The notes beneath the pieces were generated by a model, which saw nothing but the letters and a program-made list of their open reading frames with translations, ran no database searches and was not told the DNA's origin. 64,000 bases of DNA from a virus, in IMG/VR virus record IMGVR_UViG_3300025450_000015, positions 1 to 64,000 of that record; one strand, 5' to 3'. Shown one piece after another: positions 53,206 to 58,931 of this stretch (its first letter is position 1; each line of letters opens with the position of its first letter). The position numbers and the translations under genes are program-made.

Positions 53206-54054
53206 ATGACAATACCAGCAAACCCGCCCAAAGTAAATTACTTAAACAACAAAGACATGTTGGCCGAAATACACAAATCAAAAAGTAGTTATTGTGTATT
53301 TTCCAAACCAGAATATCATCAATACGATATAATCCTGCCCAGCGTAGATAAAATTAATATTAGAACTATTGCAGAAGCCAAACGTAATCGTGCCAAACGT
53401 ATTGGAGACACCGATTATGCCGCTCGTAAAAAGGGCGGAGAAAAAATTAAACAAGCCGACTGCGAAATTGATTATAAAAAAATTCCAAAGACAGATGTAG
53501 TCTTCAGGATCATGACATTTGATCATATTCCACTTAACAATACACGTAAGAAAAATCCAAAGAGTCTTGCAGATCACCGTGATAAGGTTAATTTTCCTCC
53601 TTTCCAACATTGGAAATTTAATGACGAAGATGAACTCATATGTGTTGGTAAAAGTCATTGGAAAGGTGGATTGAAGACTGGTCATTTTGACAAAAATGCG
53701 GGCCAAATAACTAACACCTTAGCTCGTATGATGTTAAAATTATGTGAGCGTTATGCTACTCGGGGTAACGTTCGTGGGTACACATATAATGACGAAATGA
53801 AAGGTCAGGCTATTTTGCAACTTACACAGATAGGACTACAATTTGATGAATCGAAATCAGACAATCCTTTTGCGTATTTTACTGCGGCTGTTACTAATAG
53901 CTTTGTTCGTGTTATTAATATAGAAAAACGCAATCAAAATATCCGTGACGACATACTGGAAATCAACGGAATGAATCCTAGTTATAGCCGTACTGGCGCA
54001 GGTGAACATGCAAACGCATTAAAACGACACAACGAGGATACTGCTAGTGAGTAA
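53206..54054 (+). CDS. gp55: late transcription sigma factor, T4 gp55-like
   Basis: YLNNKDML N-terminus; RGYTYNDEM..FDESKSDNPFAYFT..NSFVRVINIEK; adjacent to gp47/gp46. Confidence 0.85.
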   Translation: MTIPANPPKVNYLNNKDMLAEIHKSKSSYCVFSKPEYHQYDIILPSVDKINIRTIAEAKRNRAKRIGDTDYAARKKGGEKIKQADCEIDYKKIPKTDVVFRIMTFDHIPLNNTRKKNPKSLADHRDKVNFPPFQHWKFNDEDELICVGKSHWKGGLKTGHFDKNAGQITNTLARMMLKLCERYATRGNVRGYTYNDEMKGQAILQLTQIGLQFDESKSDNPFAYFTAAVTNSFVRVINIEKRNQNIRDDILEINGMNPSYSRTGAGEHANALKRHNEDTASE

Positions 54055-55060
54055 TATGTTTAAAAAGATTGCCGCTTTTACTGACATACATTTTGGTCTT
54101 AAAAGTAATTCATCAATTCACAATCAAGATTGTGAGGAATTTGTGGATTGGTATATCGCTAAAGCAAAGGAGGAAGGTTGTGATACAGGTATCTTTATGG
54201 GTGATTGGCACCATAACCGTAATAGCCTTAACATTACTACAATGGATTATAGCCTTAGGGCCTTGGAAAAGTTGGGTCAGGCGTTTAACAACTTCTATTT
54301 CTTTCCTGGTAATCATGATTTGTATTACAAAGACAAACGAGACATACACTCTGTGGAATTTGGAAAATACATTCCTGGTGTTACTGTCATACACGAGCCT
54401 ACTACTATTGGAGATGTCACCCTTTATCCGTGGTTGGTGGGAGAAGAATGGAAAAACATAAACAAACGTACAGGCAAATATTGCTTTGGACATTTTGAAC
54501 TTCCTAAATTTTTTATGAATGCCATGGTGCAAATGCCGGATCACGGAGAACTACAAGTTGACGCATTTAAAGGTTTTGAATTAGGGTTTAGTGGACATTT
54601 CCACAAACGTCAACAAAATGAAAACATGGTTTATATTGGCAATGCGTTCCCGCACAACTATTCGGATGCATGGGATGATGAACGTGGTATGATGATATTG
54701 GAGTGGGGTGGACAACCTGTATATCATAGCTGGCCTGGACAACCTACATATCGAACTCTTAAATTAAGTGAACTGATTGATCGTGCCGATGAAATTATTC
54801 TGCCTAGACAACATCTTCGTGTTGCATTAGACATTGATATTAGTTTTGAAGAAGCAAGTTTTATCAAAGAAAAATTCATTGCAGACTACAATATCAGAGA
54901 ACTTACATTGATAGCTGAAAAGAAAGAAATCGAAATTAACACTAATATAGATATTCAAAGTTTTGAAAGTGTTGATCAAATTGTCAGTAATCAAATTGTC
55001 AGCATTGATTCAGACACCTACGACAAAAATACACTACTATCGATTTACAGTAACCTATGA
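54047..55060 (+). CDS. gp47: recombination endonuclease subunit (Mre11/SbcD-like)
   Basis: TDIHFG, GDWHH, GNHD, GHFE, SGHFH phosphoesterase motifs. Confidence 0.92.
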   Translation: MSNMFKKIAAFTDIHFGLKSNSSIHNQDCEEFVDWYIAKAKEEGCDTGIFMGDWHHNRNSLNITTMDYSLRALEKLGQAFNNFYFFPGNHDLYYKDKRDIHSVEFGKYIPGVTVIHEPTTIGDVTLYPWLVGEEWKNINKRTGKYCFGHFELPKFFMNAMVQMPDHGELQVDAFKGFELGFSGHFHKRQQNENMVYIGNAFPHNYSDAWDDERGMMILEWGGQPVYHSWPGQPTYRTLKLSELIDRADEIILPRQHLRVALDIDISFEEASFIKEKFIADYNIRELTLIAEKKEIEINTNIDIQSFESVDQIVSNQIVSIDSDTYDKNTLLSIYSNL

Positions 55061-56835
55061 TTATAATAAAAGAACTAACAGTACGTAACTTCATGAGTGT
55101 GGGCAACCAGACTCAAGCTGTAGACTTTGGTAAAGAAAATTTAACACTCGTATTAGGTGAGAATTTAGATCAAGGCGGTGATGATAGCGGAAGTCGTAAC
55201 GGTACAGGTAAGACAACCATTGTAAATGCTTTAAGTTATGCACTTTACGGTATTGCACTCACTAACATTAAAAAAGATAATCTTATCAATAAGATTAACG
55301 CCAAAGGTATGTTGGTTACACTTACATTTGAAAAAAATGGTGTTCTCTATCGTATAGAACGTGGGCGTAAACCTAACATATTAAAGTTTTTTATTGATGA
55401 CCAAGAGCAAGAAACAGACGAAACAGACGATGCTCAAGGAGATATGCGTGAAACCCAGAAGGACTTAGATGACTTGCTGGGCATGAGCCACGATATGTTC
55501 AAACATATTGTTGCTCTTAACACTTATACAGAACCTTTCTTAAGTATGCGGGCTAACGACCAACGTGCTATCATTGAACAGTTGTTGGGTATTACATTAC
55601 TAAGTGAAAAAGCAGAAACTCTTAAAGAACAAGTTAAAGAAACTAAAGATGCTATTACACAAGAGACTGCCAATCTCGAAGCTACAAAGAAAAGCAACGA
55701 AAAAATACAATTAAGTATTGATAGTTTGCTAACCAAACAAATGGCTTGGGGTAATCAACATACTCAAGAGCTAGAAAAGATGGGCAGAGCCATTGTCGAA
55801 TTGGAGGACGTAGATATTGACGCTGAGCTTGCGAAGCATGCGGAGCTCAAAGTGTATGACGAGAAGTCAGCGAAGCTGAAAAGCCTAAATAAAGAGCGTG
55901 CAACGCTCGAAAGTGCGATAGCACAAGCGGAGCGAAGCGTCACGAAGTACGACGGCGAGCTCGTCAAGTTGGCTAACAAGACCTGTCACGCATGTGAACA
56001 AGAGCTACATGATCACAAGCATGAAGAAATGACATCAACAGCACAAGGGCACCTTGACGAGGCCCGAAAGTATTTCGACAAGGTCACTAAGGATTTGTCA
56101 AAAATACAAGCCGAAATTGCTACCCTGGGTGAGCTGACTCAACGTCCTTCAACGTACTATGACAGCGTGGAGCAGACTCTTAAACATCAAAACAACTTAA
56201 AAACTCTTGAAACACAGTTGACTATCAAAGCGGGTGAAACTGATCCGTATCAAGAGCAAATTGAAGAACTGCGTATGACTGCCATGCAGGAAATTTCTTG
56301 GGACTTGGTCAATGAGCTGACTCGCTTGAAGGATCATCAAGAGTTCTTGTTGAAATTGCTGACATCAAAAGATTCATTTATTCGCAAAAAGATTATAGAT
56401 CAAAACCTAGCATACTTAAACAATCGCTTGACCTATTACTTGGACAAGCTGGGGTTACCACACACAGTTACATTCCAAAACGACTTGACGGTCTTAATCA
56501 CACAGCTGGGGCAAGATTTAGATTTTGATAATCTAAGTCGAGGCGAACGCAATAGACTCATACTGGGCTTGTCGTGGGCTTTCCGTGATGTATGGGAAAG
56601 TCTATATCAAAGTATTAATTTGCTGTTTGTTGACGAGCTCATAGACAACGGACTAGATCCTTCAGGAGTAGAAGGTGCCCTGGGCATACTGAAAAAGATG
56701 GGTCGTGAACGCAAGAAAAACATATTCTTGATCAGTCACAAGGAAGAGCTGATAGGCCGTGTAAACAATGTACTGAGAGTTATCAAAGAAAACGGTTTTA
56801 CCAGCTATGCAAACGATTTAGAGATACATGAGTAG
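55057..56835 (+). CDS. gp46: recombination ATPase subunit (Rad50/SbcC-like)
   Basis: NFMSVG, NGTGKT Walker A, coiled coil with CHAC Zn hook, LSRGE signature, LLFVDE, ISH. Confidence 0.93.
   Translation: MIIIKELTVRNFMSVGNQTQAVDFGKENLTLVLGENLDQGGDDSGSRNGTGKTTIVNALSYALYGIALTNIKKDNLINKINAKGMLVTLTFEKNGVLYRIERGRKPNILKFFIDDQEQETDETDDAQGDMRETQKDLDDLLGMSHDMFKHIVALNTYTEPFLSMRANDQRAIIEQLLGITLLSEKAETLKEQVKETKDAITQETANLEATKKSNEKIQLSIDSLLTKQMAWGNQHTQELEKMGRAIVELEDVDIDAELAKHAELKVYDEKSAKLKSLNKERATLESAIAQAERSVTKYDGELVKLANKTCHACEQELHDHKHEEMTSTAQGHLDEARKYFDKVTKDLSKIQAEIATLGELTQRPSTYYDSVEQTLKHQNNLKTLETQLTIKAGETDPYQEQIEELRMTAMQEISWDLVNELTRLKDHQEFLLKLLTSKDSFIRKKIIDQNLAYLNNRLTYYLDKLGLPHTVTFQNDLTVLITQLGQDLDFDNLSRGERNRLILGLSWAFRDVWESLYQSINLLFVDELIDNGLDPSGVEGALGILKKMGRERKKNIFLISHKEELIGRVNNVLRVIKENGFTSYANDLEIHE
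55824..56099 (+). repeat. cluster of short GNA/GNNA-loop DNA hairpins inside gp46
   Basis: GCGAAGC at 55831, 55870, 55932; GAGCGT-GCA-ACGCTC 55894; GTGC-GATA-GCAC 55913; CAAGG-GCA-CCTTG 56044; CGAAA-GTA-TTTCG 56065. Confidence 0.7.
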
Positions 56836-57109: not shown

Positions 57110-57553
57110 ATGTCTTGGACTTATCAATCTCAACCAATAGAAACACTACCAGAAGACTGTATAGGATTTGTTTATATCATAACAAACACTACTAACGGTC
57201 GCATGTACATAGGCAAAAAACTAGCTAAATTCTCAAAAACCACATACAAGACAGTAAAATTAAAGAACGGCAACAAGAAAAAAAAGAAAATTCGTAGCAA
57301 AATTGACTCAGACTGGCGGGAATATTATGGTTCAAGCCCAGAATTAAGCAAGGATGTTACGGCATTAGGCACAGAAAATTTTACAAGAGAGATACTGTTT
57401 CTCTGTCGAAGCAAGGCAGAATGCAGTTATATAGAGGCTAGAGAACAATTTTCACGCAGAGTTTTAGAATCAAATGACTATTATAATGGTCATATTCAAG
57501 TGCGTGTACATGGTTCGCATATTCGCAAACTTCAAGAAAACCAGGCAAAATAA
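57110..57553 (+). CDS. stand-alone GIY-YIG family endonuclease (Seg-like catalytic domain)
   Basis: GFVYIITN..MYIGKK, YYGSS, NFTREIL, YIEAREQ (Glu), YYNG (Asn); Lys-rich insertion. Confidence 0.8.
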   Translation: MSWTYQSQPIETLPEDCIGFVYIITNTTNGRMYIGKKLAKFSKTTYKTVKLKNGNKKKKKIRSKIDSDWREYYGSSPELSKDVTALGTENFTREILFLCRSKAECSYIEAREQFSRRVLESNDYYNGHIQVRVHGSHIRKLQENQAK

Positions 57554-57563
57554 CGCCAAATAA

Positions 57564-58010
57564 GCCCGCACAGGCGATAGTATTGTGCCCTGAATCCGCT
57601 CTGATGTGTGGCGGCAAGGAATCTCTGCTTGGCGCAGAGTAGCTGGATCACTATCCTTTACAGGACGCGGATGGGATATGCCTATGAATAAACCCGTTTG
57701 ATCAGCAAGAAAATATATTTTACAGGCTAAAAGAGAGGAGAGAAACCTCGGGTTTAATAAACGTTTTACGTTGTTTATTAGACTGCCGTCATATAAAGAC
57801 TTGGCTCGTGGTACCGGATGACCGCCACTGTAATGCCAAAACGTAAGAGTGAGCATGTTCGACTCGGATAATGTTTGTCATTTTGCCCGCCAGGGCAAAG
57901 TGTGACTGAACGATCTGGATAATATCTTAAACGCTTCGCGTTATAAGTGTTGTTAACTAATCCTTAATAGTTCGAGCGAAAGCGAAGAATAGAAGAACGC
58001 AAGTTCTTCT
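57564..58010 (+). ncRNA. candidate large structured non-coding RNA (unassigned class)
   Basis: only long non-coding gap in the window; more than 12 helices found by eye, many with G-U pairs that work only on the + strand; 9-bp loop-to-downstream pairing; terminal GCAA hairpin. Confidence 0.65.
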
Positions 58011-58020
58011 TAAATGACTT

Positions 58021-58028
58021 GATAAATA
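58021..58028 (+). promoter_or_regulatory. late-promoter-like GATAAATA
   Basis: upstream of AGGAA RBS and ATG 58047. Confidence 0.55.
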
Positions 58029-58046
58029 TCTTACAGGAATTGAATA

Positions 58047-58931
58047 ATGAAAGTTTATGAAATAATCTCAGAAGGAACTGGCAGTAGTATATTGGCAGCT
58101 ATTGATAAATTTGCCAGTACTACACCTATTTCCGGCAAAGCTGTTACACTTAAAACAGAAAAAGTTCTTGGTGGTTATTTAAAAATCATCAAGTATTTGA
58201 ATCTTGCCACTTTTATCTATCAGTTCATGCAACACAGAATGGTCATTGAAAAGATGATTCAAGCTGGAGAGCTAGAAAAAGAAGACTATCCTGTGGCCAT
58301 GCGTCTTGAAGCTGAAAAGATGGTGGTGTCTATGATAGCAAGCGGTGCTATACTGCGTGTTATTCAATTTTTCTTTAGAATATTTTTAGTTGGTAGAATT
58401 GCAACTGGCGTAGTTGGAACTGCCGCTGGTATTTTTACCGGGGGCATACTTGCTCCAGAAAGTATTGCTTTATTGTTGGCTCAAGAAGCCGCGGCATTGT
58501 ATTTGCAAAAATGGCTAGCTACCAAAGAAGGTCAACAATGCGTGGCCTATGTTGTACTACACTTGGTCGATCCAGGTGTAAAAGTATTATGGGATTTAGG
58601 ACCAGGCACATTTGCTGGCAAACTAAAAGACTTAAGTAGCAAAGGCCAAGCTGGATACGATAAGAAATTAGGACCTGGCGATATCGGCGATAAAATTTCA
58701 AACAAACTTAACGGTTTGGCAGGCACTGCTGGCACAGCATTGGGTGTAGATGCCACAAGTTCTAACAGTAAAGATACTACAGCTGGCAGTTCAACTCCTA
58801 ATGCATCAATCAACGCTACTTCAGCTTCGGGCAATGGTCTTGACACGGATAAACTATTACATGATCCTGCCAACTATACATCAGACAATGCGTTTGCTAA
58901 AAAATACGGAAATCCTTGGCAAAAGAATTAA
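58047..58931 (+). CDS. hypothetical virion/internal protein with hydrophobic helices
   Basis: N-terminal MKVYEIISE; hydrophobic stretch ILRVIQFFFRIFLVG..ALLLA; late-type promoter. Confidence 0.6.
   Translation: MKVYEIISEGTGSSILAAIDKFASTTPISGKAVTLKTEKVLGGYLKIIKYLNLATFIYQFMQHRMVIEKMIQAGELEKEDYPVAMRLEAEKMVVSMIASGAILRVIQFFFRIFLVGRIATGVVGTAAGIFTGGILAPESIALLLAQEAAALYLQKWLATKEGQQCVAYVVLHLVDPGVKVLWDLGPGTFAGKLKDLSSKGQAGYDKKLGPGDIGDKISNKLNGLAGTAGTALGVDATSSNSKDTTAGSSTPNASINATSASGNGLDTDKLLHDPANYTSDNAFAKKYGNPWQKN

Follow-up and report, generated by a model that had tools for sequence, protein, structure and literature searches.

A Large Pseudoknotted Non-coding RNA Family of T4-like Freshwater Phages and Polynucleobacter Genomic Islands

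Results

The DNA analyzed here is a 64-kb window of a 153.7-kb IMG/VR viral record from an uncultured T4-like lake phage (a T4-like myovirus). Its plus strand carries gp47/SbcD-like and gp46/SbcC-like genes, a short ORF, and a gene for a SegE-type GIY-YIG domain (Table 1). The nearest cultured relative of this GIY-YIG protein comes from Methylophilales phage Melnitz (50% identity), and homologues of this GIY-YIG-only protein occur in many Synechococcus and Prochlorococcus phages. A gap of 493 nt separates the gene from the next ORF, and this gap holds the RNA described here. The ATAAATA box behind the RNA is near-invariant across relatives; the gene downstream of the box is not conserved. By analogy with the T4 late-promoter consensus TATAAATA, the box may serve as a promoter and would then mark a separate transcription unit.

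Table 1. Genes, RNA domains, and structural features of the locus (window coordinates)
Feature	Position	Strand	Evidence or remark
gp47/SbcD-like gene	54047–55060	+	
gp46/SbcC-like gene	55057–56835	+	
89-aa ORF	between gp46/SbcC-like and GIY-YIG genes	+	
GIY-YIG-domain-only gene, 147 aa, SegE-type	57110–57553	+	Pfam PF19835 SegE_GIY-YIG, E 1e-34
Whole structured RNA element, ~460 nt	57554–58012	+	Profile of the region, covariation, no conserved frame
Pseudoknot 1, 5' strand CGCCAA	57554–57559	+	Directly after the stop codon; outside the Rfam model
5' domain, Polynucleobacter-1 motif (Rfam RF01718)	57563–57708	+	cmscan, 69.5 bits
Pseudoknot 1, 3' strand UUGGCG	57629–57634	+	Loop of the third hairpin of the 5' domain
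Hairpin GAGG/CCUC	57735–57749	+	4/4 pairs change on both sides; 89.5% of cells paired
Long 13-bp hairpin, loop in pseudoknot 3	57751–57784	+	12/13 pairs change on both sides; 91.7% paired
Pseudoknot 3, 5' strand (hairpin loop)	57765–57771	+	Pairs with 57841–57848
Pseudoknot 2, 5' strand GUCAU	57788–57792	+	Pairs with AUGAC 57818–57822; 98.4% paired
Stem 57801–05/57835–39 around GUGG/CCAC and invariant GGUACCGGAUGACCGCC	57801–57839	+	Covariation
Pseudoknot 3, 3' strand	57841–57848	+	Covariation
Twin box A: ACUC + word GGAUAAU + GUU	57862–57875	+	Word identity with box B
Inter-box hairpin UUUUGCCC-GCCA-GGGCAAAG	57881–57900	+	Covariation at 57884/57897
Twin box B: AUCU + word GGAUAAU + AUC	57913–57926	+	Word identity with box A
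Hairpin AACGC-UUC-GCGUU	57930–57942	+	Pairs 57931–57941 and 57932–57940 covary
GAAA-capped hairpin GUUC GA GC GAAA GC GAA GAAU	57970–57990	+	Purine-rich internal loop
Terminal hairpin	57991–58010	+	Likely 3' end or terminator
ATAAATA box, T4 late-promoter-like	58022–58028	+	5' of the 294-aa ORF, a few bases past the terminal hairpin
294-aa ORF	58047–58931	+	Without Pfam or PHROG family
Baseplate-hub gene	beyond the 294-aa ORF	−	

A first-pass annotation, made from the letters of this DNA alone, had described the gap as a large, multi-domain, non-coding RNA element on the plus strand, richer in GC than its flanks. This description holds up well. The annotation also took the gap to be the only large non-coding one in the 64 kb; a mechanical count of gaps does not show this, because spurious ORFs overlie the region. 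No reading frame is conserved among relatives; the 128-aa ORF on the minus strand (57470–57856) is interrupted by stops in relatives. In the element the GC fraction is 0.442, whereas the window as a whole has 0.364 and the GIY-YIG gene 0.356. The minimum free energy of folding, measured against dinucleotide shuffles, corresponds to z-scores of −2.96 on the plus strand and −2.32 on the minus strand. Together with these scores, the frequent G-U pairs on the plus strand and the strand of the Rfam match described below lead us to assign the RNA to the plus strand.

Relatives were collected by two routes. A scan anchored on the GIY-YIG protein returned 80 viral contigs, and a protein-independent search with the DNA pattern GTGAC-N6-ATCTRSATAATA, taken from the uncatalogued part of the element, returned 119 more. 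With a profile of the gap, the element was recovered at 193 loci, at full length in 145 of these, and a non-redundant set of 110 sequences (<94% identity) was used below. Three loci at first seemed free of the element; one of them holds a divergent copy, one is a truncated contig, and one had matched the pattern by chance. The GIY-YIG gene lies 5' of the RNA in every related phage locus with sufficient upstream DNA, and this adjacency is kept in about 190 phage loci, down to 52–60% protein identity. In the pattern-fetched loci with enough upstream DNA, the distance from the gene to the pattern downstream of it is 335–471 nt, except in one locus, where it is 1154 nt. We regard the GIY-YIG gene as a conserved upstream neighbor of the RNA, part of its genomic context. 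A blastn search of 50,697 cultured-phage records gave no match to the element. A few phages carry an extra ORF of ~0.7–1 kb between the GIY-YIG gene and the RNA (L022:3426–4451, L042, L017, L080, L059/L067, and L150).

Covariation was assessed by mutual information over the 110 sequences and by pair counting in a structure-blind MAFFT alignment of 38 relatives, and both approaches agree. Among the 38 relatives, standard pairs fill 83.6% of the cells, compared with 70.5% in shuffles, and 53 of the 69 proposed pairs change on both sides, a number that none of 500 shuffles reaches. Double changes occur in 355 cells versus 110 in the shuffles. The covariation score amounts to 0.424 as opposed to 0.188 for shuffles (0/500 reach the observed score), and falls to 0.08–0.13 if the partners are slid by 1–3 columns. 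Covariation among homologues, one of the checks proposed in the first-pass annotation, is strong. Judged by this comparison of relatives, the plus strand of 57554–58012 is a non-coding, strongly covarying structured RNA with predicted transcript ends.

Compensatory changes in relatives also back the following helices of the first-pass annotation: GCACAG/TTGTGC, CCGCT/GGCGG, CTCTGC/GCAGAG, the GCTG-GATCA/TGATCAGC junction with its two inner hairpins, GAGG/CCTC, the 12-bp GGTTTAATAAAC stem, GTGG/CCAC, the GCCC-GCCA-GGGC hairpin, and the terminal AGAAGAAC hairpin. Two further proposals find no support. The TTACA/TGTAA closing stem forms standard pairs in only 23–72% of sequences and does not covary, and in place of GGCTAA/TTGGCT we find that 57801–05 pairs with 57835–39, with 100% standard pairs and four pair types at 57802–57838. 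The GTC/GAC helix is ambiguous, as 57788–92 covaries with the AUGAC loop 57818–22 in a pseudoknot.

The suspected pseudoknotting proved correct, and three pseudoknots are backed by compensatory changes. The first connects the leader to a hairpin loop of the 5' domain and occurs in six compensating leader/loop combinations among relatives, with the co-changes CACCAA/UUGGUG, UGCCAA/UUGGCA, CGUCAA/UUGACG, CGGU/GCCG, and CAGU/GCUG; pair 57556–57632 appears as GC (48), CG (31), or GU (21). In the second, where AUGAC in the loop of the 57801–57839 stem provides the 3' strand, pair 57790–57820 is either CG (59) or UA (51) and pair 57791–57819 either GC (57) or AU (43). In the third, all seven pairs change on both sides, 97.9% of the cells are paired, and pair 57770–57842 is GC (89) or AU (21). 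The 5' strand of pseudoknot 1 follows the GIY-YIG stop codon without a gap (57551–57559). As a terminating ribosome would cover this strand, translating the gene and folding the 5' domain of the RNA may hinder one another.

The uncatalogued core of the RNA consists of the two latter pseudoknots around the invariant GGUACCGG..ACCGCC, followed by the twin boxes, each with a hairpin behind it. At the 3' end of the element stand the GAAA-capped hairpin and then the terminal hairpin. In the former, pair 57973–57987 occurs as CG (52) or UA (43), and this hairpin is also kept in the Polynucleobacter island copies described below. In the terminal hairpin, pairs 57992–58009, 57994–58007, and 57997–58004 covary with 98–99% standard pairs among the 110 sequences; this hairpin is poor in the count over 38 relatives only because MAFFT misregisters its loop. 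In the window the terminal hairpin carries no U tract, so we place the 3' end of the RNA there provisionally.

The 5' domain is a catalogued RNA. It matches the Polynucleobacter-1 motif on the plus strand with a score far above the gathering score of 37 (E 1.3e-14). The match spans model positions 1–141 of 141 and is not truncated, and so includes the 3' half that the authors of the motif call not always detected. The helices of this domain are kept by compensatory change as well: pair 57570–57586 is AU (73) or GC (35), the pairs of 57645–49 with 57700–04 show three to four pair types, and 57673–75 covaries with 57693–95. RF01718 is the sole Rfam 15 match in the whole window, and at E ≤ 10 the region 57400–58150 contains only this match and two at chance level. 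The first-pass annotation had called the element unassigned and an undescribed class of RNA. Both labels fail for 57563–57708, the 5' third, where there is a strong Rfam match of the sort that the annotation itself had named as removing the novelty; 57709–58046 has no Rfam match at E ≤ 10 and is uncatalogued. The same annotation had seen no hallmarks of RNase P RNA, tmRNA, or group I/II introns. We concur with this view, since at E ≤ 10 none of these, nor GOLLD, ROOL, or HEARO, gives a covariance-model match, ARAGORN finds 0 genes in the window, and the element interrupts no gene.

The 5' domain appears to be swappable. All six loci tested among those that match the profile at full length reach the RF01718 cut-off, with 71–109 bits. 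Another 14 loci were tested whose match to the profile begins only in its middle; none of them reaches the cut-off, and in L044 RF01718 goes unmatched even when E ≤ 5 is allowed. This sister lineage (L044:3430–3620 and 13 further loci, e.g., L059, L064, and L073) has a different 5' domain of ~190 nt. Since it retains the core, with GGUACCGG..ACCGCC, the twin boxes, and the 3' hairpins, we consider RF01718 a probable interchangeable 5' module and the uncatalogued ~300 nt the likely conserved core. These ~300 nt are the most conserved part of the RNA across more than 190 related phage contigs.

The two boxes of the core contain the same 7-letter word in 145 of 146 full-length elements. They are ~51 nt apart in the window and 47–60 nt apart across relatives. 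Seven different words occur, each fitting RSA-URR-W. A tree was built from the remainder of the element, and on it the first letter of the word switches ~25 times; with a single sequence as the exception, the two boxes made these switches jointly. Where the boxes constantly differ from one another, the difference is always a transition (CUC versus UCU, G versus A). The complement of the word is absent from the element and from the 3-kb island loci, and is not enriched in the phage record.

Several explanations for the boxes were tried and rejected. The phage record has three other 12-mers that resemble the boxes, all of them within long ORFs, and eight elements have a third copy of the word, at scattered positions; we attribute both to chance. 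A helix 57857–60/57908–11, which would present the boxes as symmetric overhangs, is only 66% paired. Antiparallel pairing of box A with box B and self-dimer palindromes fail in the GC and A variants. A reading of the words as take-off and landing codons plus a stop codon, for a T4 gene 60-like bypass, was rejected too, given that no ORF enters the region, the spacing varies from 47 to 60 nt, and the island words lack a stop.

Outside phages, RF01718 is found in 16 of 141 Polynucleobacter genomes with 82–104 bits, several times on megabase-scale contigs. Among 12 fetched Polynucleobacter loci, only L298, a short phage-like contig, has a GIY-YIG match. In the island loci examined, the neighbor of the RNA is instead a divergent gene with a DUF6641 domain (PF20346, E 1e-13), accompanied in L306 and L310 by a short gene of the phage-integrase family (188–198 aa). 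In these two loci the RNA lies between the two genes. The island features are located at about 870–1385 and 2290–2915 of each locus (L306, L307, L309, L310, and others). An invariant TAAATAA box lies 10–45 nt upstream of the island RNA, and its 3' hairpin scores as terminator-like. The island copies are ~450 nt long and have the 5' domain and the 3' hairpins in common with the phage RNA; they also keep the twin boxes, with the words AGCGAAA, AGAGAAA, AACAAAA, and AUCAAAA. No DUF6641 gene was found in the phage record, which is 42% complete, and control genomes gave no signal for this domain either.

An exact-pattern scan of 185,579 prokaryote genomes matched 96 stretches, six of which are true copies of the phage-type core, all on short MAG contigs. 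Four of these contigs contain the GIY-YIG gene and two begin inside the element. Most likely they are phage DNA binned into MAGs.

Discussion

These data show that the RNA behind the GIY-YIG gene belongs to a family of large (~460 nt) structured non-coding RNAs on mobile elements of freshwater bacteria. It is partly known: the 5' third is the catalogued Polynucleobacter-1 motif, and the other two thirds are new relative to public catalogues. According to the supplement of the original report (Weinberg et al. 2010, Genome Biol 11:R31; PMC2864571), Polynucleobacter-1 was recognized in environmental samples and one Polynucleobacter genome, mostly downstream of genes of the GOS11034 family with possible homology to gene 218 of cyanophage P-SSM2, and none of the sequenced purified phages contained it. 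In the literature searched, this report alone names the motif, and in the public sources consulted only the 5' motif of the RNA is described; nothing in that literature ties a structured RNA to the SegE-type GIY-YIG family.

The RNA resembles Polynucleobacter-1 in that the whole 141-position model is matched and in that the habitat (fresh water, Burkholderiales) fits; the reported context, downstream of a gene family possibly homologous to a P-SSM2 gene, may fit as well. It differs in that the curated motif covers only the first third. The leader pseudoknot (57554–59 with 57629–34) is omitted from the curated motif, as are the ~300 nt of covarying core, which hold the twin boxes, the other two pseudoknots, and three hairpins on the 3' side. 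The sister lineage departs further, keeping the core with a different 5' domain and no RF01718 match. In contrast to the absence from purified phages noted in the original report, the RNA is found here on a 153.7-kb T4-like viral contig and in about 190 relatives.

Polynucleobacter-1 has been an orphan Rfam motif since 2010, loosely classed as a possible cis-regulator and previously unseen in a phage genome. It now appears as the exchangeable 5' part of a far larger RNA with three pseudoknots, one that occurs widely among uncultured T4-like freshwater phages and also resides in Polynucleobacter genomic islands. The strain in which the motif was first reported is Polynucleobacter QLW-P1DMWA-1. 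The Polynucleobacter strains that carry an island copy can be cultured, which brings the RNA within reach of experiments, and the twin boxes offer a sharp, testable handle on its function.

Among other large RNAs of phages and prophages, GOLLD and ROOL, reportedly described by Weinberg and colleagues in 2009 and 2017, are the closest in kind. They share with the present RNA an ornate, pseudoknotted architecture, a location on phages and integrated elements, and no identified obligate protein partner. Recent cryo-EM work is reported to show them as RNA-only multimeric cages. The present RNA is smaller (~460 nt; by itself it would weigh about 150 kDa), and although both families are in Rfam, neither scores at E ≤ 10. 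To our knowledge, twin identical boxes are not a described feature of either.

We consider a stand-alone, trans-acting folded RNA the most likely reading and assign it a probability of about one half; a small share is reserved for readings beyond those discussed here. We favor it because the RNA has its own gene in the islands, because the GIY-YIG gene is widespread without the RNA, and because the protein does not track the word of the twin boxes. The RNA would act in trans and in its own right, as a folded particle or RNP; it would be neither a guide for the GIY-YIG nuclease, nor a mere 3' UTR, nor a replication origin. In the phage it would be made as the tail of an early/middle gp47-gp46-GIY-YIG transcript, since no base separates the stop codon from pseudoknot 1, and the RNA would end at the terminal hairpin, ahead of the late-promoter-like box. 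What speaks against a stand-alone RNA is that the phage copy follows the GIY-YIG gene at every locus seen, and this keeps a cis role or a tie to the protein under consideration. Nor did a search for a reader of the boxes, among complementary words and in the GIY-YIG protein, find one.

A cis role would make the element a 3' UTR of the GIY-YIG / gp46-gp47 operon, a folded cap that protects the early/middle transcript from 3' exonucleases, keeps it apart from the late unit downstream, or couples folding to the termination of GIY-YIG translation. The constant position behind the GIY-YIG gene in all phage loci argues for this option, as does the start of the element right after the stop codon, where a terminating ribosome would cover pseudoknot 1. 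It also fits that no sigma-70-type promoter lies between gene and RNA and that the closing hairpin is placed just 5' of the late-promoter-like box. However, three pseudoknots, invariant single strands, and boxes that are held identical exceed the needs of a 3' cap. Moreover, the island RNA stands alone, divergent from its neighbor gene and with its own conserved upstream box, and in some phages an ORF of ~1 kb intervenes between the GIY-YIG gene and the RNA. On balance we judge a cis-acting 3' UTR to be unlikely.

The tie to the protein had been raised in the first-pass annotation, which suggested that the RNA may partner the adjacent GIY-YIG nuclease. Such an RNA could supply target recognition by way of the word, or serve as scaffold or inhibitor. 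Strict adjacency in about 190 phage loci is what such a partnership would predict, and a bare 147-aa GIY-YIG domain without a DNA-binding domain could be complemented by short, variable, single-stranded words. Guide RNAs are familiar from nucleases and recombinases of mobile elements, such as the omega RNA/HEARO of IscB and the bridge RNA of IS110, and the present locus resembles these systems: a structured RNA with short variable single-stranded words lies beside a nuclease gene on a mobile genome. In contrast to an OMEGA-like pair, RNA and nuclease are separable here. Polynucleobacter islands carry the RNA without the gene, and homologues of the GIY-YIG protein occur in 429 cultured-phage records in which blastn detects no copy of the RNA. 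At the Melnitz locus, which encodes the closest cultured-phage homologue, the corresponding gap measures only ~150 nt and has no match to the RNA. Furthermore, no column of the protein covaries with the first letter of the word (maximal mutual information 0.21 of 0.95 bit, equal to the permutation null), no word complementary to the putative guide is enriched in the phage record or the island flanks, and HEARO has no Rfam match in the RNA. As synteny by itself is weak evidence in the core regions of T4-like phages, we regard a partnership with the GIY-YIG protein as very unlikely.

Coming back to the stand-alone RNA, its function may be sought in the twin boxes. The pattern of changes suggests that they are a functional read-out, that is, two copies of one word that must stay identical. 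In the simplest readings, the boxes would contact each other, or the same short complementary partner would read both. Identity of the words demands direct coupling: the boxes touch, a copy of one fits the other, or short tracts are converted. Gene conversion of short tracts between the repeats could preserve the identity of the words even if nothing reads them. We also consider, as a long shot, that the boxes are checked against each other for identity, in a type of pair that no RNA is known to have. This could take two forms. The two single strands might recognize each other by like-with-like pairing in parallel register, or a short copy templated on one box might anneal to the other, by a template jump or as a product RNA. 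If either is true, the word would drift freely only when both copies change together, and a widespread family of phage and island RNAs would harbor a new RNA mechanism.

An elaboration of the second form would turn the element into a self-templated copying module. The twin boxes would bound a template of 47–60 nt, and a complementary product that is primed at one box, or ends there, would have to re-anneal at the other, either through a template jump, as in repeat-copying reverse transcriptases, or as a product RNA in the manner of 6S RNA. Copying of this kind would force the words to be identical and yet let them drift, which is the behavior seen (145/146 identical despite ~25 flips); the element contains no third, complementary word, the constant and different flanks (ACUC versus AUCU) could act as boundary elements, and the spacing is variable. 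In 6S RNA and in the ncRNA template of DRT2, a copy templated by the RNA has to re-pair with it, and by analogy this offers a possible logic for two identical words. Neither RNA has structural similarity or an Rfam match to the element, though, and the parallel is no more than an analogy. No polymerase candidate adjoins the RNA, and no reverse transcriptase was seen in the loci examined. We therefore rate a copying module as highly improbable.

Least credible of all is that the region acts as DNA, as an origin, an R-loop primer region (a replication role that the first-pass annotation had also entertained and for which we found nothing), or a set of iteron-like repeats with incidental hairpins: two direct repeats ~51 bp apart that evolve in concert do resemble iterons, and the recombination genes gp46/gp47 are close by, but the pairs are kept by compensation at the RNA level, with numerous G-U pairs, which on the opposite strand would read A-C, three pseudoknots covary, Rfam curates part of the region as an RNA family, the element has no promoter-like site within it, and instead of an AT-rich unwinding tract one finds the most GC-rich stretch of the neighborhood.

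Finally, the GAAA-capped hairpin near the 3' end combines a GNRA loop with a purine-rich internal loop and is possibly a kink-turn or a loop-E-like module. One of its strands, AGCGAA, resembles AGCGAAA, the commonest twin-box word of the island copies.
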